From a plasmid: a DNA stretch of 64,000 nucleotides. The stretch lies in assembly GCF_056712565.1 (NCBI RefSeq), contig NZ_JBWXXM010000004.1. The stretch is one strand, 5' to 3'. Of this stretch, positions 24,795-33,726 are shown piece by piece (position 1 is the stretch's first letter; each line of letters starts with the position of its first letter). The notes under the pieces are model-generated. The model did no database searches and was not told the DNA's origin. It saw only the letters and a list, made by a program, of their open reading frames with translations. A program made the position numbers and the translations under genes.

Positions 24795-26057
24795 ATGATC
24801 ACTTCAGCACAAAACCAATCAATCGAAAATGTATCTATCCCTGACGTCCTGAATGCCGGTATCCCGGCCATTATCCAGAACATCCGGGCCGCGCAACGCC
24901 GCGTTAGTTGTGATGACCTCACAGCGCGTTTTTTTGATAATGCGGTTCAGTCAGCGGAGATGCTTCACGCACAGCTTATTGATGTTTATAACGCAGAAGC
25001 TGATAGCCATAACTCCCTGGTAGATGCAGCTGAAAATATGCAGTTGGATCTCGGTCTGAAGGGTAAAGAAATTGAAGAGCTTCAGCTACAAATTGAACAT
25101 TTGAAACGCCAGCAACAGGACGCGATCGACGATGCGACGCATGACGCCAACCAGCGTGCTGATAATGCCGAACGTATAAGCATTGAGCTGGAAACAAAAC
25201 TCAATGAAATGACCGCGATGGTTGAACTGCGGAACTCACAGATTTCAACGCTAAAATCTCAATATAAAGAGATCATGAAACTTGATCCTTTTAACCTTGA
25301 GAAACGCTATAACAAAGCTAAAAGCGAGCGACAGGAACTGCGTAAGCAGGTCGCCGACCTTAACCAACAGCTCAAAAAAACTATTAAAGATGCAAGCGAA
25401 GCGCGCGTGGCATTTGCTAATAAAAAAGCAGAGGTTACCGCGCTGGTTAATGAGAATGCCAAATTTGCGACGCTCAAGAAGGAAATGTATGGCATTACTG
25501 AGCGCCGTTTCCCTGCAAGCAAACTTCATCCGACGTTAGGGCAAATCTCCTTCTTCCCGCGCCTCCTGGCTTATGGGATCTCATCGCCTAAAGAGTTCAA
25601 TAACGAGCGTCCTTATATCGTTTCTAAGCTGGACTTTGCTTATCAGTTCTGCTGCGACATGGGCTATGCCATTGATATCCGAATCAACGAATGGTTGATG
25701 CCAAACTTCCAGCCGTTGGCAATTTTCCGCGAGTTCCAGCCGGAAGGTTGGGTAGAGTTCTTCCATGAATTGATCTGTAAAGAGATGGAAAGCCGCCGCC
25801 CGGAATTGGTCCGTCGAGTTGAGTGGGCGCAAGAGGTTATGTTGGCAGATGCAGAGCTGCCGTTCGAACCGGAATTCATTGATGATCTGGCAACTAAAGG
25901 GTTGCATACCCTGTTTGATGTGGTTACCCGCCGTCATGAGCAGTTGGTTGTCGAATTGGGTTTAGAGGAAACAGCGGCAAGAAGACTTCTCGATGTTTGC
26001 TATGCACGTAGCGATGCATGGGAAAAAGAGAACGGCGGCACTATTTACGTCCGCTGA
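24795..26057 (+). CDS. coiled-coil protein with globular C-terminal domain
   Basis: 420-aa ORF; long heptad-like central region. Confidence 0.55.
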   Translation: MITSAQNQSIENVSIPDVLNAGIPAIIQNIRAAQRRVSCDDLTARFFDNAVQSAEMLHAQLIDVYNAEADSHNSLVDAAENMQLDLGLKGKEIEELQLQIEHLKRQQQDAIDDATHDANQRADNAERISIELETKLNEMTAMVELRNSQISTLKSQYKEIMKLDPFNLEKRYNKAKSERQELRKQVADLNQQLKKTIKDASEARVAFANKKAEVTALVNENAKFATLKKEMYGITERRFPASKLHPTLGQISFFPRLLAYGISSPKEFNNERPYIVSKLDFAYQFCCDMGYAIDIRINEWLMPNFQPLAIFREFQPEGWVEFFHELICKEMESRRPELVRRVEWAQEVMLADAELPFEPEFIDDLATKGLHTLFDVVTRRHEQLVVELGLEETAARRLLDVCYARSDAWEKENGGTIYVR

Positions 26058-26079
26058 TAGTTACAGCGTCACTTTTAAT

Positions 26080-26110
26080 GCTGGTGGAGTGCGCCCACCA
26101 GCATTTTTTT
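26080..26110 (+). terminator. rho-independent terminator
   Basis: GCTGGTGG-AGTGCGC-CCACCAGC followed by ATTTTTTT. Confidence 0.65.
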
Positions 26111-26129
26111 CGTCCAATGAGGAGGGCAT

Positions 26130-26636
26130 TTGAGTATTTTCAATAAACACGCACACCAGGAACGTCCGTATATCGTCATAGTCGATATTGATGGAACAAT
26201 ATCAGAGGCAACTGAAGACAGACTGCATTTGCTTCCGCCACCAGGTAAAGGTGCATTAACAAAGGACTGGAACGAGTTTAATCTCGCCTGTGACACCGAT
26301 ACTCCCATCACTCCGGTTATTGATATGGTGCGCCAGTTATTTAACGTTTACACGGTCTGGTTTGTAACCGGGCGCTGTGAGATCGCAAGGGATAAAACAC
26401 GAGCCTGGCTGCGTAAGCACGTAACAAATGGGGCTGAGCCTTTGCTATCTATGCGTCCTGCCACCGATGACAGAAATGACGGCCCTGCAAAGATTGATCT
26501 CCTGAAGAAAATTGGTCTAAGTAAAATTGCGTTCGCGCTGGAAGATAAGATTGAAGTGGCGCGTGTTTTCAGGAGTCACGGCGTACTTACGTTAATGGTC
26601 AGGGAATATGAAAATGCACTTCTTCATCAACAATAA
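26130..26636 (+). CDS. HAD-superfamily phosphatase-like protein
   Basis: 168 aa with DxDGT motif (IVIVDIDGTIS). Confidence 0.55.
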   Translation: MSIFNKHAHQERPYIVIVDIDGTISEATEDRLHLLPPPGKGALTKDWNEFNLACDTDTPITPVIDMVRQLFNVYTVWFVTGRCEIARDKTRAWLRKHVTNGAEPLLSMRPATDDRNDGPAKIDLLKKIGLSKIAFALEDKIEVARVFRSHGVLTLMVREYENALLHQQ

Positions 26637-26652
26637 TTGCTCTAATAAATCT
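26636..26652 (+). promoter_or_regulatory. C1-operator-like site
   Basis: ATTGCTCTAATAAATCT right after the HAD gene stop. Confidence 0.55.
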
Positions 26653-26734
26653 TGATTTTTAAAACAGAGAAAGTGAAAATTAAAACATGCCGCAAGGCGC
26701 GGCATGTATCCAATCAATCACAGGAGCTGAAAAT

Positions 26735-26821
26735 ATGAACACGGCATTCAAAATCATTATGGCCGCGATCTATTTCTGGCTGTTCTCTATCACTTTTGGC
26801 GGCATCGTCGCACATGGGTAA
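26735..26821 (+). CDS. 28-aa hydrophobic peptide (single TM)
   Basis: MNTAFKIIMAAIYFWLFSITFGGIVAHG with AGGAG RBS 7 nt upstream; below ORF-track cutoff. Confidence 0.35.
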   Translation: MNTAFKIIMAAIYFWLFSITFGGIVAHG

Positions 26822-26830
26822 GGGGGATGT

Positions 26831-27409
26831 ATGAAAGGCGAAGTGAAAGAGCGCGGCATGATTTTTAACGATGAGATGGTCCGGGCAATTCTTGGCGGGA
26901 ATAAAACACAGACTCGCAGGATTGTTGAAGAAAAATTCTATGGACGGGCAGTGGCCGCAGAGTTGCTTGCCAAGCATTGTCCATATGGTCAACCGGGCGA
27001 TCGTATTTGGGTTCGCGAAACCTACCGGGTACATGGCAAAGCGACGGACGTCGCAACGCTGGTTTATCGCGCAAGCGTGCGTAACTCCTGGACAGAACAA
27101 ACGCACCGGGTTCCGGTCGAGGTTTGTAATAAACCAGTATCAGAAAAGTGGACGCCATCAATTCACATGCCGCGCTGGGCATCGCGCATTCTTCTGGAAA
27201 TTACCGACGTGCGTGTGGAACGGCTGCATGACATGAGCGAGGCAGATGCTAAAGCAGAAGGCGCAACTCCGGCGACGTACAAGATTACGCCATCTGAAGC
27301 TGTTTATCGCGTTGGTTTTGGTGATATCTGGCGCAGTATTTACGGGCAGGATAACTGGCTATCTAACCCGTTGGTATGGGTAATCGAGTTTAAGCGCATT
27401 CAGGAATAA
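26831..27409 (+). CDS. ASCH-domain protein (YqfB-like)
   Basis: GGNKTQTRR near N-terminus and C-terminal VWVIEFKRI resemble ASCH (GxKxxExR ... YVIEFK); alternative start 26858. Confidence 0.5.
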   Translation: MKGEVKERGMIFNDEMVRAILGGNKTQTRRIVEEKFYGRAVAAELLAKHCPYGQPGDRIWVRETYRVHGKATDVATLVYRASVRNSWTEQTHRVPVEVCNKPVSEKWTPSIHMPRWASRILLEITDVRVERLHDMSEADAKAEGATPATYKITPSEAVYRVGFGDIWRSIYGQDNWLSNPLVWVIEFKRIQE

Positions 27410-27412
27410 ACC

Positions 27413-28291
27413 GTGAGTATGCATCAAGTCGTCAGCTTTTCAGGTGGACGAACATCGGCTTATCTCGTTCATCTGATGGAAGCACAGCGAAAAGCTGGCG
27501 CTAGCGTCCATTTCATTTTTATGGATACCGGCTGTGAACATCCTCTGACGTATCGCTTTATTCGTGAGGTTGTGAAGTTCTGGAACGTACCGCTAACGGT
27601 GTTGCAGGTCGATATAAATCCAGAAATTGGGAAGCCAAATGGTTATACGGAATGGGAACCAAAGGATATTCAGACGCGAATGCCGGTGCTTAAACCGTTT
27701 ATGGACATGGTTAAAAAGTACGGTACGCCATACATCGGCGGCGCGTTCTGTACTGAAAGGCTAAAACTCACCCCTTTCACGAAATATTGCGATGACCATT
27801 TTGGGCGAGGGAATTACATCACATGGCTGGGTATTCGTGCGGACGAACCCCGTAGGCTGAAACCGAAACCGGGCGTCCGGTATCTTGCCGAACTGTCAGA
27901 TTTTGATAAGTCGGATGTTATCCGGTGGTGGCGAAAACAACCTTTTGATTTGCAAATCCCGGAGCACCTCGGGAACTGTGTTTTTTGCATCAAAAAGTCA
28001 ACGCAAAAGCTGGGGCTTGCATGTAAAGACGAACCAGGTCTGATGCGGGTTTTTAATGAACTGGTTACAGGCAAACACGTCAGGGATGGTCATCGCAGAA
28101 CAGGTAAAGACGTTATGTACCGTGGCCACCTGACGCTTGACGGGATTGCCAGAATGTATGCCGACAGTGACTACAGAAATTTGTATCAGGCGATGGTGCT
28201 GGCCAAGCGGTTTGATACTGGTTCGTGTTCCGAATCATGTGAAATCTGGGGTGACCAATTGGAGTTGAAATTCGAAGAGGTAGTGGAATGA
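27413..28291 (+). CDS. PAPS-reductase-like / PP-loop ATP pyrophosphatase family protein
   Basis: 292 aa; PP-loop SFSGGRTSAYLV near N-terminus. Confidence 0.55.
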   Translation: MSMHQVVSFSGGRTSAYLVHLMEAQRKAGASVHFIFMDTGCEHPLTYRFIREVVKFWNVPLTVLQVDINPEIGKPNGYTEWEPKDIQTRMPVLKPFMDMVKKYGTPYIGGAFCTERLKLTPFTKYCDDHFGRGNYITWLGIRADEPRRLKPKPGVRYLAELSDFDKSDVIRWWRKQPFDLQIPEHLGNCVFCIKKSTQKLGLACKDEPGLMRVFNELVTGKHVRDGHRRTGKDVMYRGHLTLDGIARMYADSDYRNLYQAMVLAKRFDTGSCSESCEIWGDQLELKFEEVVE

Positions 28292-28491
28292 CAATCGTAA
28301 AAACCCATACCGGTACCGTGATCACCAAAGATGGCCCGAAGGTAAAAAAACTGCACCAAACAGAGCGGATGTGGGTCGTTGGCAAAAACGAGTTTTACCA
28401 CAAAGAAACTGGACGCCGCCATTTTGCAGAAAATACGCGCCGCCGACTGCTGTTAGACACCATCAAGCCTATCGAGGTGAAGCATGTTTAA
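28288..28491 (+). CDS. hypothetical small protein
   Basis: 67-aa ORF, start overlaps upstream stop. Confidence 0.35.
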   Translation: MTIVKTHTGTVITKDGPKVKKLHQTERMWVVGKNEFYHKETGRRHFAENTRRRLLLDTIKPIEVKHV

Positions 28492-28723
28492 ACAGAACGA
28501 AAAAGCTATCGCTCAAATTGCTGATTATATCCCGCGTGCGTGCCGGGGTATGCAGTTGCAGGAAGCCAAAGCGCGCCTGGAGAAAAAAATTGCGCTCTAT
28601 ATTGATGACGGCTGTGATGCCGCCGTTCTTAACGCGGCGTTCGCACCAGCTCTTAACTGTCACACTCGGGAGTCTTTTTTTTCATGCATCGCAGCGCAAC
28701 TCCGCCAAGGAGGCAACCAGTGA
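28484..28723 (+). CDS. hypothetical protein ending in ..AAQLRQGGNQ
   Basis: 79-aa ORF; 3-prime junction AAGGAGGCAACCAGTGAG repeated at 29925. Confidence 0.4.
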   Translation: MFKQNEKAIAQIADYIPRACRGMQLQEAKARLEKKIALYIDDGCDAAVLNAAFAPALNCHTRESFFSCIAAQLRQGGNQ

Positions 28724-29364
28724 GTAACCGTTTTTACATGATGTGCTTGCGTGAAATTGTGGGTAATAACGCCTCATTCCATTGCCATAACGGCAATGGT
28801 TACAGTTCTGATATCGATCGCGCTCATGTTTACACGCTGGAAGAAGGCCAAAAAGCCTGGAATTGTGGACGAGATATCGATCAGCCTGTTTGCGCTGATA
28901 GCGTGGATGCAATGGCTGTGTGGCACGTTGATTGCCAGTACATCCCTACAGAAAGCCTGATTGAGTCAGATTGCACTGCGTATGTGGCCTACAAAAAAGG
29001 TAGCTGGAACGGCAACGATGTTTACTGGCTTCAACACGGTGGATTGCCAACAGATGACTTCAGTAAAGCGACCATCTTTAGCGTCGCCAACAAAAACGAA
29101 CCAGGAATAGTTTGGTTGCCATTTTCCATTGCTGATTCAGCAAAGCGCCGGACGTTCAATATCAATAACTTTAACCGCAGAACAATGGTTCAGGGCGCAG
29201 GTTTGGTCATGCCTGACTGGTTGAAAAAGCAGAACAGAAGAAAGAAGTCGCGAAGCGGGAAGGTGCGTTGGAATTGTCCGCATTGCGGAAAAATTACCTG
29301 GCAGTACAGCCCATATGATTTTGAAGGCTGTCGTGATTACAACTGTGAAGGATGGCGAGAATGA
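28719..29364 (+). CDS. Cys-rich hypothetical protein with C-terminal zinc-ribbon-like CPHC..C..C
   Basis: GTG start inside conserved junction with AAGGAGG RBS; about 215 aa. Confidence 0.45.
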
Positions 29365-29948
29365 CAATTGACTATCAGGCACTGCGAGATGCGGCAGTTG
29401 CAGTAGAAACAGAACCTATGCATCAAAATTTTGTGGCGTTTCGTATGGCGTTCACGCCATCGGTGGCACTGGCACTACTGGATGAAATTAAGCGGCTGGA
29501 AGACACAAATATTGATGCTATGTGCCGTATTGCAGAGCTTGAGACTAATCTCGCGGCGCTGGTGGCAGAGAACGCCGGACTGAAACACGCAATGGCCGTA
29601 ACTCTTGAGCATGTGTCGGTCACGGATGCAGGGCAGGCCGGAGTTGCTGCAATGATTATCAACGATGCCCTGCACCACAGCGAAACTCCAGCTACCGATG
29701 CTTTTCTAGCTGAAGTGAAGACTGAAGCACGCAAGGAAGGCGCTTATTTTGTGGCGAACAGAATGCTGGCTGCCTGGGAAGCTGGTTTTATTGATGATAC
29801 CGCGAAGAACGCCGCGGATATTGCCCGGATGATTCTTACCTCTACTGAGTTTATGGCTAATGCGCCGGAAGGCGATTTTGACCGCTCATTCTCTGATGGC
29901 GTTCTCGAAGATATCGCCGCCCAGCTTCGAAAAGGAGGCAACCAGTGA
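29352..29948 (+). CDS. Ead/Ea22-like protein, paralog A
   Basis: 198 aa; N-terminal IDYQALRDAA and ALALLDE motifs; ends ..AAQLRKGGNQ. Confidence 0.45.
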   Translation: MARMTIDYQALRDAAVAVETEPMHQNFVAFRMAFTPSVALALLDEIKRLEDTNIDAMCRIAELETNLAALVAENAGLKHAMAVTLEHVSVTDAGQAGVAAMIINDALHHSETPATDAFLAEVKTEARKEGAYFVANRMLAAWEAGFIDDTAKNAADIARMILTSTEFMANAPEGDFDRSFSDGVLEDIAAQLRKGGNQ

Positions 29949-30697
29949 GCAAGATTGACTATCAGGCACTGCGTGAGGCGGCGGAACGTGCAATTCCAGC
30001 AATGGAACGCCTGTTAATGTTGCCAGCTGATGATGATTTGTTAAGTGAACAGGAACTTAAAGATTACGGTGTGGATATTGATGCGCTCAACGCCTTCAAA
30101 TTTCTGGCCGGACCAGAAACCGTGCTGGCACTACTGGATGAACGGGAAAGAAACCAGCAATACATCAAACGCCGTGACCAGGAGAACGAGGATATTGCGC
30201 TAACGGTAGGGAAGCTGAGAGTTGAGCTTGAGGAAGTAAAACAACACGCTGAAGAATTATCCGAAACCAAGGCTGTTCGTAACCAATGGCGGCCAGATAT
30301 TTGCCCAATAACCGGACGTGCATTTTTCATGTGGATTGAGCATCCAACATTGGGAAATGTGCCGACATATGGTGGCCCATTAGATAGTTACACCATTCCA
30401 ACAAAGGACGGTGACGGTGAGTTTTCATGTGAGCGTTACGATCATGATTTTGGCGGTTGGGTAGAAAGCGAATGTCTTGGGTTATATCTGATTGATGATA
30501 GAGAACAATGCAGGGTCTACGAACTGGAGGAACGCGTTAAGGAACTGGATGCTCGGGAAATATCGCTCCCGGAACGTAGCAGCATGCTTCATCGAACAGA
30601 TTTTCACGATGATTACCAAACGGTAATGGCATACAAAGTTTCTGAGGTCATCGCTGCAATCCGCGCCGCTGGCATCCGTATCAACGGAGGTGAGTAG
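29945..30697 (+). CDS. Ead/Ea22-like protein, paralog B
   Basis: 250 aa; N-terminal IDYQALREAA and PETVLALLDE; GTG start in repeated junction. Confidence 0.45.
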   Translation: MSKIDYQALREAAERAIPAMERLLMLPADDDLLSEQELKDYGVDIDALNAFKFLAGPETVLALLDERERNQQYIKRRDQENEDIALTVGKLRVELEEVKQHAEELSETKAVRNQWRPDICPITGRAFFMWIEHPTLGNVPTYGGPLDSYTIPTKDGDGEFSCERYDHDFGGWVESECLGLYLIDDREQCRVYELEERVKELDAREISLPERSSMLHRTDFHDDYQTVMAYKVSEVIAAIRAAGIRINGGE

Positions 30698-30867
30698 TGC
30701 GTGTGGTATGTATCAGCTTGTTACCGTACCCGACTCGTTTTTGGGCTTCTGCGCTAATTGCAAAGCCACATGTCCTGATGGCTGACAACATCATCCCGGC
30801 ACCAAAGCGCCGCCATACCGGTATTGCAGCGGCACGACGAGCAGCAAAGAGACGCAGGAGAGCAAAG

Positions 30868-31046
30868 CGATGAAAAACCGTAAGGCAAAACGACTTTTTT
30901 TACAGCGGCCTGTGCGTGTGGTGGAGCTGGTTATTAGCAACCATAAGATAGCGGTACTCCATCCATTTGGTCAGGTGGCTTTTGCCGCAAAGCGTAAGCC
31001 TACTGCGTCACAGAACAGGCGGAAGAAAGGGTACGCAGTAAGATGA
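30868..31046 (+). pseudogene. small basic protein gene (paralog of next ORF) interrupted at a T9 homopolymer
   Basis: ATG at 30868 reads MKNRKAKRLF then shifts frame in T-run 30893-30901; with T8 the frame gives a 58-aa protein ending ATGA-coupled to next ORF. Confidence 0.3.
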
Positions 31047-31231
31047 AAAACCGTAAAGCAAAGATTCTGTTAGTTCGTAGAAACGCTCCTGGCGTCTGGC
31101 AGTGGGTGAGACTCAGCAACCGACGGATGGGGTTGATGAAATATTACGGGATGATGGATTGTGGTTTTTGCAAAAAGCCCAGCGCGGCGCAAAACCGCTG
31201 GAAAAACCATTTGCGCACTAAAGGAGAGTGA
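31043..31231 (+). CDS. small basic protein with Cys pair
   Basis: 62 aa MKNRKAKILLVRR...; shares N- and C-terminal motifs with the upstream frameshifted copy. Confidence 0.4.
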   Translation: MKNRKAKILLVRRNAPGVWQWVRLSNRRMGLMKYYGMMDCGFCKKPSAAQNRWKNHLRTKGE

Positions 31232-31232
31232 T

Positions 31233-31748
31233 ATGGCGTTAACACACCGCGAACTCTGTCAAATTGCGTACAAGTTCCTTAAGCGCAACGGGTTCAAGGT
31301 TTGTTTTCATGACCGCTTTATAGCTGTAACCAGTACCGGAGAACAGCCAGATGCTATGGGGTTCAGAAATTCAGCATCATGCCTGATAGAGGCGAAGTGT
31401 TCTCGTGCTGACTTGTTGGCAGATAGAAAAAAGCGTTTCCGTAAAAATCCCTCACTTGGCATGGGCGACTGGCGATTCTTTATTAGTGAGCCGGGAATTA
31501 TTTCAATTGAGGATTTACCACCTGGCTGGGGATTACTTCACGTTGTTAACGGAAGAGTACGGAAAGTACATGGGTGGCCCAAGGGTAATTGCTGTTGGGG
31601 TAATCCTGACGATAAGCCATTTACTGGAAATAAGCAGGTTGAATGCGATTACATGTTATCTGCATTAAGGCGCATGGAGTTGAGAGGGCACCTTAATGAA
31701 ATATATGACGGTGTAATTGTTAATAAGAAAGAAGGAAACGCGGCATGA
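31233..31748 (+). CDS. PD-(D/E)xK nuclease-fold protein
   Basis: 171 aa from ATG 31233 (RBS AAGGAGAG); motif ..EQPDAMGF..(12)..LIEAKCS. Confidence 0.5.
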   Translation: MALTHRELCQIAYKFLKRNGFKVCFHDRFIAVTSTGEQPDAMGFRNSASCLIEAKCSRADLLADRKKRFRKNPSLGMGDWRFFISEPGIISIEDLPPGWGLLHVVNGRVRKVHGWPKGNCCWGNPDDKPFTGNKQVECDYMLSALRRMELRGHLNEIYDGVIVNKKEGNAA

Positions 31749-32944
31749 TCACTATTACCAAAGAGCGACTGCTGACAATCAAGCAGTGGCGCGAAACATA
31801 CGGACCTGGTAGCAACGTTGTACTGCCAGCAGAAGAAGCGGAAGAGCTGGCACGGATTGCTCTGGCATCGCTGGAAGCAGAACCGGTGGCATGGACTGAT
31901 GAAGAGGAACTGCGCGATGTCAGGAAGTATGGTTTCGGTGAGATATTTCAGTGTCCGCCAGATAAATATGCGGACCCGCGTCGTGTAATCTCGCTGTATC
32001 GCGAGCTGCCAGCACCGGTAGTGCCAGATGATTGGCAACTCGTACCTAAGAAAATAACACTGGAAATGGAATGTGCTCTATCAAAAGCTGATAGCTATGA
32101 AATTGGTTGGCTATGGGCATTGGCAGCCGCACCTAAATACGAAGTACAGAACGCTAAACGCGTGCAAAACGCGCTTAACGCCTGCCGCGCCGCCATGCTT
32201 CAGTCCGGAAACTTTCGGGAAAACAAGAATTCGTCAACCAATAATTTTCGGGAAATCGCGGAAACGTCAACCAACTATCCGGCAATTCCTAGTGAGGTGT
32301 TGTCCGCAATCCTGAAGGTTGCCAGGATTCGTGCCGATTTCGATGATTTTGACGGTGACAGGCGAGGTATCGGTGATTGTCTGGATGAGGCTGAGCAAGA
32401 GCTTATCGTTACCATTAACAAATATGCCAGTCAGTTGGCAGCAGAACCGATAGCGACTAATGACGTTCGAGAGCAGCAGACAGCCGTTCCGCCAGTTCCG
32501 GAAATACAGGATGATGTCGCGCAAGCAATTGAAAATCTCAAGCAGAAGTTAGTGGAATGCAATCGCTATAACTACTGCGCAGATGCAGTTAAAGGCGTAG
32601 AGGATGCCTGCCACGCTGCCATGCTTCAGGGTAGGGAACGCCTTGTTCTGGATGCCGCTACCAGAACCGCCGCAGGAGGCGAAATGATGGATGTAAAAGA
32701 GAAGGTTTTGCAGGTGATGCGTTCCCGGGCTGCCCTGCAAGATAAAGCTCTCGGCGGGGAATATCCATTCAGGATGGCAACCTGGAATCTGCGGTTGGCA
32801 ATGGAGAAGGAATTTCCTGATGAAGAATGGCGGTCGGCAGATTTGCGCAAAATTCTTATGGAGCTGGCTAAAGATGGAACAGTATCCAAAGATACCCATG
32901 CCAGCCGGATTGGTCAGGCGGTATGGAGACTGGAGGTGAGGTAA
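31745..32944 (+). CDS. hypothetical protein with internal repeat
   Basis: 399 aa; repeated segments NALNACRAAMLQSGNFRE and GVEDACHAAMLQGRE. Confidence 0.5.
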   Translation: MITITKERLLTIKQWRETYGPGSNVVLPAEEAEELARIALASLEAEPVAWTDEEELRDVRKYGFGEIFQCPPDKYADPRRVISLYRELPAPVVPDDWQLVPKKITLEMECALSKADSYEIGWLWALAAAPKYEVQNAKRVQNALNACRAAMLQSGNFRENKNSSTNNFREIAETSTNYPAIPSEVLSAILKVARIRADFDDFDGDRRGIGDCLDEAEQELIVTINKYASQLAAEPIATNDVREQQTAVPPVPEIQDDVAQAIENLKQKLVECNRYNYCADAVKGVEDACHAAMLQGRERLVLDAATRTAAGGEMMDVKEKVLQVMRSRAALQDKALGGEYPFRMATWNLRLAMEKEFPDEEWRSADLRKILMELAKDGTVSKDTHASRIGQAVWRLEVR

Positions 32945-33020
32945 TAAGCTGGCCTGAAGCATTTGCGATTGTAGGCGTAGCTATGGCGATTGCCGCTATT
33001 TTTATCTTCTGGGGGTAACG

Positions 33021-33254
33021 ATGGGAAAATTAACTTTTGTAGTCGAATTTGAGGATGGCAAAGAGCCACCTGTTAGCGCCAATCTTGATGTTGCTGGTGG
33101 CAGGCTGGTTTCGGTTCTATTTGGTGATTACCGCGACGACTTCTTTCAGCCTGAAGAAGTTGATGTAGTGCGAGAAGCATTAAACGAGCTAAGTGTTGAT
33201 AACGATGATGCTCATGCGGAAATCATCAAAAAAATGGAACTGCTAACTCACTAA
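33021..33254 (+). CDS. hypothetical acidic small protein
   Basis: 77-aa ORF. Confidence 0.4.
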   Translation: MGKLTFVVEFEDGKEPPVSANLDVAGGRLVSVLFGDYRDDFFQPEEVDVVREALNELSVDNDDAHAEIIKKMELLTH

Positions 33255-33302
33255 ATTATCAATTATGGTGCTATCACCTACGACACCGAGAGAAAATTTA
33301 TA

Positions 33303-33425
33303 ATGTCAAAAGTAAATGTTTTGATTTTTTCAGCAATTGTTGGCTTTGGTTTTACTGCCGGAGTGCAGATTTATATTACGTGGGAAAAAATCATCAACTA
33401 CGCATGGAGTTGTTTTATTAAGTGA
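33303..33425 (+). CDS. 40-aa hydrophobic peptide
   Basis: MSKVNVLIFSAIVGFGFTAGVQIYITWEKIINYAWSCFIK; weak RBS; below ORF-track cutoff. Confidence 0.25.
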   Translation: MSKVNVLIFSAIVGFGFTAGVQIYITWEKIINYAWSCFIK

Positions 33426-33431
33426 GGTAAG

Positions 33432-33726
33432 TATGTGGAGAGGTAATAATCATGGCAAAAGCCAGATGATACTTACCGAATATAAGCTAGACCACAAAAC
33501 CAATAAATCACGCTCAGTATATTTGCTCCGGCACAATAGCCGCGTAAGAAATACCGTGCTGGAACAAAATCTGACAGTTGAAATGGATAATTGCGGGGGA
33601 TTCAAGCCAACAATTTCGCTTGATGATTTTCCTCGTGGTTTAAGCGAAAGAGAAGCAATGCTGAAATTAGCAGAATGGCTACAAAGATTAAGCATTGCTA
33701 TTGAAGATAACTGGTCTGAACCTTAA
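33432..33726 (+). CDS. hypothetical protein
   Basis: 98 aa from ATG 33432 with GAGGT RBS; ORF-track frame opens at 33337. Confidence 0.4.

Follow-up and report, generated by a model that had tools for sequence, protein, structure and literature searches.

The locus and its genes

The DNA considered here is a 64,000-nucleotide stretch of a plasmid (contig NZ_JBWXXM010000004.1 of RefSeq assembly GCF_056712565.1; hereafter the window, meaning this stretch at its full length). It carries four consecutive, overlapping genes, termed A to D, among which a short junction sequence occurs twice, once at the boundary of A with B and once at the boundary of C with D (Table 1). The first-pass annotation of the window had described this sequence as an 18-nucleotide (nt) junction present at about 28702-28725 and 29925-29948; the junction is indeed an exact 18-mer present twice, and the sites are the right ones, although the positions given were a few bases off.

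C and D are members of the lambda Ea22/P22 Ead family, whose proteins combine a conserved N-terminus and a coiled coil with C-terminal parts that vary greatly. Both score above the Pfam gathering threshold of 27 bits for PF13935 (C, 41.1 bits; D, 104.4 bits), and residues 2-108 of D align to positions 1-121 of the model. The conserved Ea22 N-terminus (M-S-x-I-D/N-Y-Q-A-L-R-E) is present, with C beginning MTIDYQALRDAA and lambda Ea22 beginning VSEINSQALREAA. A Pfam search of A and B returned no match, neither being a PF13935 member, and their PHROGs are exclusively families of unknown function. The B cassette is bounded on its left by the junction and on its right by an ATGA overlap with C. The NCBI Prokaryotic Genome Annotation Pipeline (PGAP) places the same four coding-sequence boundaries, both GTG starts included, on the 100%-identical plasmid NZ_CP134391.1.

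The window is a P1/P7-like Escherichia coli phage-plasmid, and the two junctions sit in its hypervariable, C1-controlled early operon. These assignments follow from the flanking genes, which are those of the phage P7/P1 set (shtB/PmgS, pap and upf86.8), from plasmid matches and from matches to the C1 operator. Positions 26000-33500 are 100% identical to five E. coli plasmids of approximately 95-100 kb and match 1364 plasmid records, mostly in 4-9 pieces, and the P1 C1-operator consensus has 15 matches in the window where 0.33 would be expected. Within the operon, some 11 consecutive genes (27413-32944) are joined by ATGA, GTGA or similar overlaps.

Table 1. Coordinates of genes, repeats and homology breakpoints in the window. 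SD, Shine-Dalgarno sequence; HSP, high-scoring segment pair (HSP ends are those of related contigs); aa, amino acids.
Feature	Position	Strand	Description
Gene A	28484..28723	+	79 aa; PHROG 1344 (unknown function); ends in IAAQLRQGGNQ inside junction copy 1
Gene B	28720..29364	+	214 aa; GTG start; homologue of P7 Upf87.6; PHROG 2457 (unknown function)
Gene C	29361..29948	+	195 aa; Ead/Ea22-like, PF13935; ATG overlaps stop of B; ends in IAAQLRKGGNQ inside junction copy 2
Gene D	29945..30697	+	250 aa; Ead/Ea22-like, PF13935; GTG start
Junction copy 1	28707..28724	+	SD AAGGAGG 28707-13; spacer CAACCA; GTG of B 28720-22; TGA of A 28721-23
Junction copy 2	29932..29949	+	SD AAGGAGG 29932-38; spacer CAACCA; GTG of D 29945-47; TGA of C 29946-48
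Extended repeat copy 1 (tail codons plus junction)	28688..28727	+	40 nt; 83% identity to 29913-29952
Extended repeat copy 2	29913..29952	+	partner of 28688-28727; left HSP ends of relatives cluster at 29910-19
Ea22 N-terminal repeat (IDYQALR) in C	29367..29395	+	29 nt; 93% identical to 29954-29982
Ea22 N-terminal repeat in D	29954..29982	+	partner of 29367-29395
LALLDE repeat in C	29469..29486	+	perfect 18-nt repeat CTGGCACTACTGGATGAA; second copy at 30125
LALLDE repeat in D	30125..30142	+	perfect match to 29469-29486
Second type of coupling junction	31220..31235	+	AAAGGAGAGTGATATG; tail ending in KGE, then ATG; same sequence ends Ea22 in P7 and lambda
C1-repressor operator-like site	26636..26652	+	1 mismatch; directly upstream of operon; P7 counterpart Op(hea)
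HSP-end cluster	28700-28729		junction 1
HSP-end cluster	29910-19		start of C tail codons
HSP-end cluster	30110-29		LALLDE motif
HSP-end cluster	30230-49		
HSP-end cluster	31210		second junction type AAAGGAGAGTGATATG
HSP-end cluster	31740		start of 31745 gene
HSP-end cluster	32170		ACRAAMLQ repeat

Anatomy of the junction

Both copies of the 18-mer, AAGGAGGCAACCAGTGAG, lie on the plus strand; no further site was found in the 64-kb window at up to two mismatches, and the count expected from 100 dinucleotide-preserving shuffles is 0.00. As first proposed, each copy combines the C-terminus of one protein with a ribosome-binding site (RBS) and the GTG start of the next, and the SD, the spacer, the start-stop overlap and the open reading frames (ORFs) all agree on this arrangement. 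In both copies, the SD is located inside the upstream ORF, 6 nt before the GTG, and the start and stop codons overlap as GTGA (28720-23 and 29945-48). Alleles of the junction form a family with the core GGAGGCANCCAGTGA, to which the exact 18-mer belongs, and the shared 15-18 nt are often extended, either by AxQLRK codons upstream or by Ea22 N-terminal codons downstream. The two upstream proteins were also correctly described as sharing a C-terminal tail: a BLASTP alignment of A with C is limited to the last 11 residues, of which 10 are identical, and this tail appears to be largely a by-product of the initiation region. Chance or a local duplication as the origin of the repeat was ruled out, given that no copies are expected, that the two copies have unrelated flanks and that A and C share these 11 residues only.

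RNA folding at the two copies is no better than that of shuffled sequences (z = -1.68 and +0.74). In both, base pairing is possible between the GGAG of the SD and the CUCC or CUUC within the Leu-Arg codons (28697-28713 and 29924-29938), giving a mini-hairpin of 4-5 bp for which the fold statistics are not significant. Such a hairpin could hide the SD until the upstream ribosome arrives, an idea to be read together with those non-significant folds. A programmed frameshift fusing the upstream and downstream proteins was also considered: the -1 frame is the downstream frame, but a slippery heptamer is absent (C AAC CAG), and this alternative was rejected on sequence grounds.

Comparative and annotation evidence supports the GTG codons as the probable starts of both B and D. 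A perfect SD precedes each at optimal spacing, and in contigs retrieved only via the Ea22 N-terminal coding sequence the start position is occupied by GTG in 103 and by ATG in 26, with the distance to the SD unchanged; interchange of the two codons at a fixed SD distance is the behavior of a start codon, not of an internal valine. Of 89 contigs carrying gene B, 85 have GTG as the start codon and one has ATG. D aligns with the start of the Pfam Ead_Ea22 model from its residue 2 on, and the annotated start of lambda ea22 is likewise a GTG. An in-frame ATG upstream of B, at 28684, belongs to cassette A, because homology to B in P7 and other genomes begins only at the junction; cassette A itself is often replaced in relatives. 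Together with the PGAP annotation, these lines of evidence place initiation of the downstream proteins at the junction rather than elsewhere. By the same architecture, translation of the downstream gene would depend on translation of the upstream gene, that is, the two would be coupled.

Evidence for a conserved nucleotide element rather than a conserved peptide

The junction encodes part of a protein as well as an initiation region, and its conservation might reflect either. The evidence favors a conserved unit at the level of DNA or RNA, namely the translation-initiation region. Unrelated upstream genes read the junction in two frames, ending in KGGNQ or in KEATSE(QD); examples of the second frame are P7 Upf87.4 (ending TWEAEATSE), an Upf86.8-like gene that runs into B (ending ERIQGATSE) and a gene of approximately 104 codons (ending SPAKEATSE). 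Several junction copies have no upstream ORF at all (U7, U11, U15, U21 and U23), and in some upstream families the shared residues are limited to KGGNQ, for which the SD and spacer supply the codons (e.g. ..YLNAMWRKGGNQ). From these three features, it would follow that the selected unit is the initiation region and that the tail is largely a read-through by-product.

The competing explanation holds that a functional C-terminal peptide, (F/I/W)A(A/D/E)(Q/E)(L/I)RKGGNQ, is selected, for instance as a terminal helix or as a degradation or interaction tag, with nucleotide identity and the RBS being secondary. This is not without support, as A and C retain IAAQLR(Q/K)GGNQ despite synonymous differences in five of the six IAAQLR codons, and the extended motif is found again on many Ea22-type C-terminal domains that differ in other respects. 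Yet real, unrelated genes that read the junction in the other frame, copies lacking an upstream ORF and families with KGGNQ alone all stand against it. Moreover, when AAQLRKGGNQ was searched with all synonymous codons allowed, AAA GGA was found in 129 of 129 matches, a sample sharing members with the contig set chosen through the 18-mer. Hardly any variation exists across the full 33-mer in this sample, so recent common descent and constraint are not separable there. Where CAG changes to CAA, the change coincides with a swap of the GTG start for ATG. Peptide-level selection was thus ruled out as the main cause by the two-frame usage and the ORF-less copies, and we regard the peptide explanation as a whole as improbable.

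The junction at the boundaries of exchanged cassettes

That the junction marks the boundaries of exchangeable cassettes is borne out by a broad survey, by a control sample assembled without reference to the junction and by individual pairs of genomes. A scan of IMG/VR identified at least 120 contigs that carry the exact 18-mer, and the flank counts given in this paragraph were taken among the matches listed. Adjacent to the 18-mer are at least 59 distinct 30-mers upstream and at least 55 downstream. Clustering of 300-nt flanks gave at least 26 upstream clusters and at least 20 downstream clusters, all unrelated, in at least 53 combinations; 14 of the 26 upstream clusters join two or more downstream clusters, and 10 downstream clusters join two or more upstream ones. 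For example, genes of the A family run directly into Ea22 genes in several contigs (U1-D0). Homology of 200 nt or more to the left of the 18-mer is shared by 305 pairs of contigs, and in 224 of them it ends within 30 nt to the right; conversely, 365 of 451 right-homologous pairs lose homology on the left. In about half of all pairs (3441/6903), no more than 20 nt are common on each side past the 18-mer.

The phages carrying the element include lambdoid, P22-like and P1-like types. Of 5426 complete E. coli genomes, 1479 have a match to an 81-nt probe taken around copy 2; the corresponding sites number 1763 on chromosomes and 238 on plasmids, with up to six per genome. HK97 gp37 ends on the exact 18-mer (NC_002167, ~22786) and is followed by an unannotated, truncated Ea22 remnant of 34 aa. 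In HK620, hkaH/hkaG use a variant that differs by 1 nt, AAGGAGGCAGCCAGTGAG (NC_002730, ~3521).

The control sample was composed of contigs picked only by a 22-mer inside gene B (80-89 contigs) and not by the junction. Pairs anchored in this way lose their left homology at 28690-28729, that is, at junction 1, in 2603 of 3160 cases (82%), and lose their right homology at 29380-29409, just past the conserved start of the next gene, in 75%. The 89 gene-B contigs have 19 unrelated upstream clusters that meet only at GGAGGCANCCAGTGA, and the core GGAGGCNNCCA[AG]TGA is kept in 82 of them.

Natural variants at this locus include several apparent recombinants. P7 is collinear with the window up to 27265, then carries upf87.4, and its homology resumes at 28709, inside copy 1; NZ_MK410117.1 has its breakpoint likewise at 28709. 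A further case is the pair NZ_CP157096.1 (L307) and NZ_CP086223.1 (L313), whose identity is 99.4-99.8% outside a 2333-bp block found in L307. This block lies exactly between two junction copies and comprises B together with an Ea22 gene, a DUF4752 gene and a hypothetical gene. L313 has a single junction, on which the two alignments of this pair share 34 nt; this junction is a hybrid consisting of the left flank of copy 1 followed by copy-2 sequence. A search for further junction-to-junction blocks, defined as absent in the other contig with both 150-nt flanks at least 95% identical, recovered sizes of 241, 256, ~630, ~683, 1225, 1237, 1330, 1405, 1629, 1665, 1863 and 2333 bp. The 1225-bp block is the window's own B plus C, which is bracketed by the two junction copies and absent in L313. 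The combinatorial flanks, the left breakpoints of gene B, the resumption of P7 homology and these blocks bear out the original description of the junction as a modular joint, and the junction is found at cassette boundaries in relatives.

A connector that may double as an exchange site

We consider it likely that the repeat is a standardized intercistronic connector of the Ea22/ead accessory region in temperate enterobacterial phages and that it doubles as an exchange site. On the mRNA, the junction would act as the translation-initiation region of the downstream gene, and a ribosome that terminates on the upstream gene could reinitiate at the overlapping GTG. An upstream gene would have to read through the junction and would thereby acquire a fixed tail, KGGNQ or KEATSE(QD) depending on the frame. 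With the same 15-18 nt kept before many unrelated genes, a patch of identity would arise at gene boundaries, and rare homology- or microhomology-dependent exchange within this patch could swap, insert or delete whole cassettes while leaving translation of the operon intact. The natural variants described above point to recombination at the junction, which could proceed through phage annealing proteins of the Red/RecT/Erf type, through RecA or by template switching. Conservation of the junction itself appears to be driven mainly by translation.

Several observations weigh against this reading or limit its reach. Perfect identity between the two copies extends over only 18 nt, less than the minimal lengths for efficient pairing of 23-27 bp for Red-beta and 31-34 bp for RecA (PMC3945230); RecET reportedly works, at low efficiency, with 5-13 bp (PMC2327257). 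Exchange must therefore be rare or must use flanking homeology or microhomology. The switch point in the hybrid junction of L313 lies at the extreme left edge of the 18-mer and not clearly inside it, and at copy 2 the break in many relatives precedes the 18-mer by approximately 20 nt, falling where the tail codons begin (29910-19). A and C encode IAAQLR with codons that differ at five synonymous positions, the peptide being kept, which hints at some protein-level constraint on the extended AxQLRK tail. The pairwise counts are not phylogenetically independent, and three of the four contig sets were ascertained via the junction or its neighbor. Finally, while one model of phage mosaicism invokes homologous recombination at short conserved boundary sequences, the opposing model, illegitimate recombination followed by selection, also places mosaic joints at gene boundaries (PMC3233612).

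Applied to this locus, the opposing (Hendrix) model would have a strong RBS and start travel with the downstream gene, with joints formed at random by illegitimate recombination and selection retaining those at gene boundaries. It would account for the fact that the junction belongs functionally to the downstream gene and sits most often on an Ea22 N-terminus, it accommodates an identity that is short against the minimal pairing lengths, and it is in keeping with the many phage mosaic joints that lack conserved boundary sequences (PMC3233612). However, the junction joins at least 20 downstream and at least 26 upstream unrelated clusters and so is not tied to one gene, and indels between near-identical genomes run precisely from junction to junction, in one case leaving a hybrid junction. 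Joints elsewhere in the region likewise fall on short direct repeats, namely the LALLDE repeat (18 nt), the N-terminal repeat (29 nt) and the KGE junction; such a pattern is the signature of homology-guided exchange. On balance, we assign the random-joint explanation a low probability. Cassettes present or absent between identical short sites also bear a superficial resemblance to those bounded by attC, and the junction might by analogy with integrons be the target of a dedicated site-specific recombinase. This seems to us very remote: no recombinase family is represented among eight neighboring proteins, the site lacks both a palindrome and a significant fold, several different short repeats serve exchanges in the region, and the element occurs in lambdoid, P22-like and P1-like phages that possess different recombinases. 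A connector conserved for translation and secondarily used for homology-guided exchange thus remains our preferred interpretation.

A further-reaching version of that interpretation would treat the Ea22/ead region as a recombinase-independent 'plug-and-play' cassette system, in which a few connectors (GGAGGCANCCAGTGA, AAAGGAGAGTGA and some in-frame peptide linkers) are under second-order selection for exchangeability beyond conservation of the RBS. We view this version as speculative and rather unlikely. If it were correct, accessory genes would move between lambdoid, P22-like and P1-like lineages with operon translation unbroken, and the C-terminal tails, including the published K/R-G-E motif, would be functionless read-through products.

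Relation to known systems

The kind of element described here is already known, both as the boundary sequences of lambdoid phages and as ATGA/GTGA translational coupling, and the junction does not define a new kind of system. The modular theory of lambdoid phages reportedly goes back to Susskind and Botstein, and Clark, Inwood, Cloutier and Dhillon are said to have catalogued seven boundary sequences in their 2001 account of the HK620 genome. Because HK97 and HK620 carry the junction, it may already be among those sequences. Searches for the junction sequence string and the KGGNQ string returned nothing relevant in the searchable literature. Conserved boundary or 'linker' sequences at the junctions of lambdoid modules are an established concept (summarized in PMC3233612), and the present junction resembles them in being short, conserved amid unrelated flanking modules, located at gene boundaries, coincident with homology breakpoints and a proposed focus of recombination; HK620 and HK97, both analyzed in that literature, carry it. 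In contrast to those sequences, the junction is a complete translational-coupling unit that is embedded within the upstream coding sequence and is translated in either of two frames. Single cassettes are bracketed by it, since it is repeated in one genome, and it also occurs in P1-like phage-plasmids. With translationally coupled overlapping genes, it shares the 4-nt GTGA overlap and an SD inside the preceding gene, but whereas ordinary coupling junctions are specific to a gene pair, the same 15-18 nt here precedes many unrelated genes. In integrons, too, single genes flanked by a recurring short site come and go as units; unlike integrons, with their attC sites and IntI, the present region lacks a dedicated integrase, an attC-like imperfect palindrome and a promoter-proximal attI, and its exchanges appear homology-guided, using other short repeats as well.

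With respect to the Ea22/Ead family, A and B are not Ea22 proteins yet use the junction, and KGGNQ constitutes a second type of tail beside KGE. The significance of the K/R-G-E C-terminal motif of Ea22/Ead was called unknown by Dydecka et al. (2020, PMC7093339). We infer that this motif is the translation of an embedded SD, and the KGGNQ and KGE tails would then both be translated embedded SDs (AAAGGAGG / AAAGGAGA) for the next gene. Reading the tails as encoded ribosome-binding sites bears on any structural interpretation of these motifs and on the annotation of GTG starts in such regions.

What may be new is a matter of degree: one connector for dozens of cassettes, its use in two frames, its bracketing of single cassettes, its sharing among lambdoid, P22-like and P1-like phages and the explanation it offers for the Ea22 tails. 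The junction also supplies an unusually clean natural test case for the old debate over whether mosaicism arises by homologous exchange at linkers or by illegitimate joints plus selection. An identical connector of 15-18 nt is combined with dozens of unrelated cassettes, often with two copies per genome, against a constant P1-like backbone in more than 1300 sequenced plasmids, and approximately one-quarter of complete E. coli genomes carry the element.

Other joints and neighboring genes

The region contains several short conserved joints, the junction among them, and the HSP ends of related contigs cluster at discrete positions, nearly all of which fall on short conserved motifs (Table 1). 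In NZ_CP049847.1, C and D are fused or deleted at the 29-nt Ea22 N-terminal repeat. P7 Upf88.3 is a C/D hybrid joined at the LALLDE repeat, as recombination between the two copies would produce, and for this reason 656 nt that include junction copy 2 are missing from P7. The junction that follows a KGE tail bounds a block of approximately 520 nt (30694-31213) that is absent from P7. This block holds three tandem small ORFs rich in Arg and Lys (30697-31231; 58, 58 and 62 aa), two of which begin MKNRKAK, and the repeat GATGAAAAACCGTAA(G/A)GCAAA is found at 30869 and 31042. The connector of the KGE tail reads AAAGGAGAGTGA(TATG); its copy in lambda lies at ~29847 of NC_001416, where no gene follows it and where it has the appearance of a relic.

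Additional cassette polymorphism is evident elsewhere on the same backbone. Positions 27413-28491 hold a PAPS-reductase-family gene (292 aa) and a 67-aa ORF, which are also present in many P1-like plasmids and in place of which P7 has upf87.4. At 31745-32944, a 399-aa gene contains an internal repeat, with ACRAAMLQ codons at 32180 and 32606, where the breakpoints of relatives cluster; the relatives carry DUF551-type mosaics at the position of this gene, in the same patchwork style.

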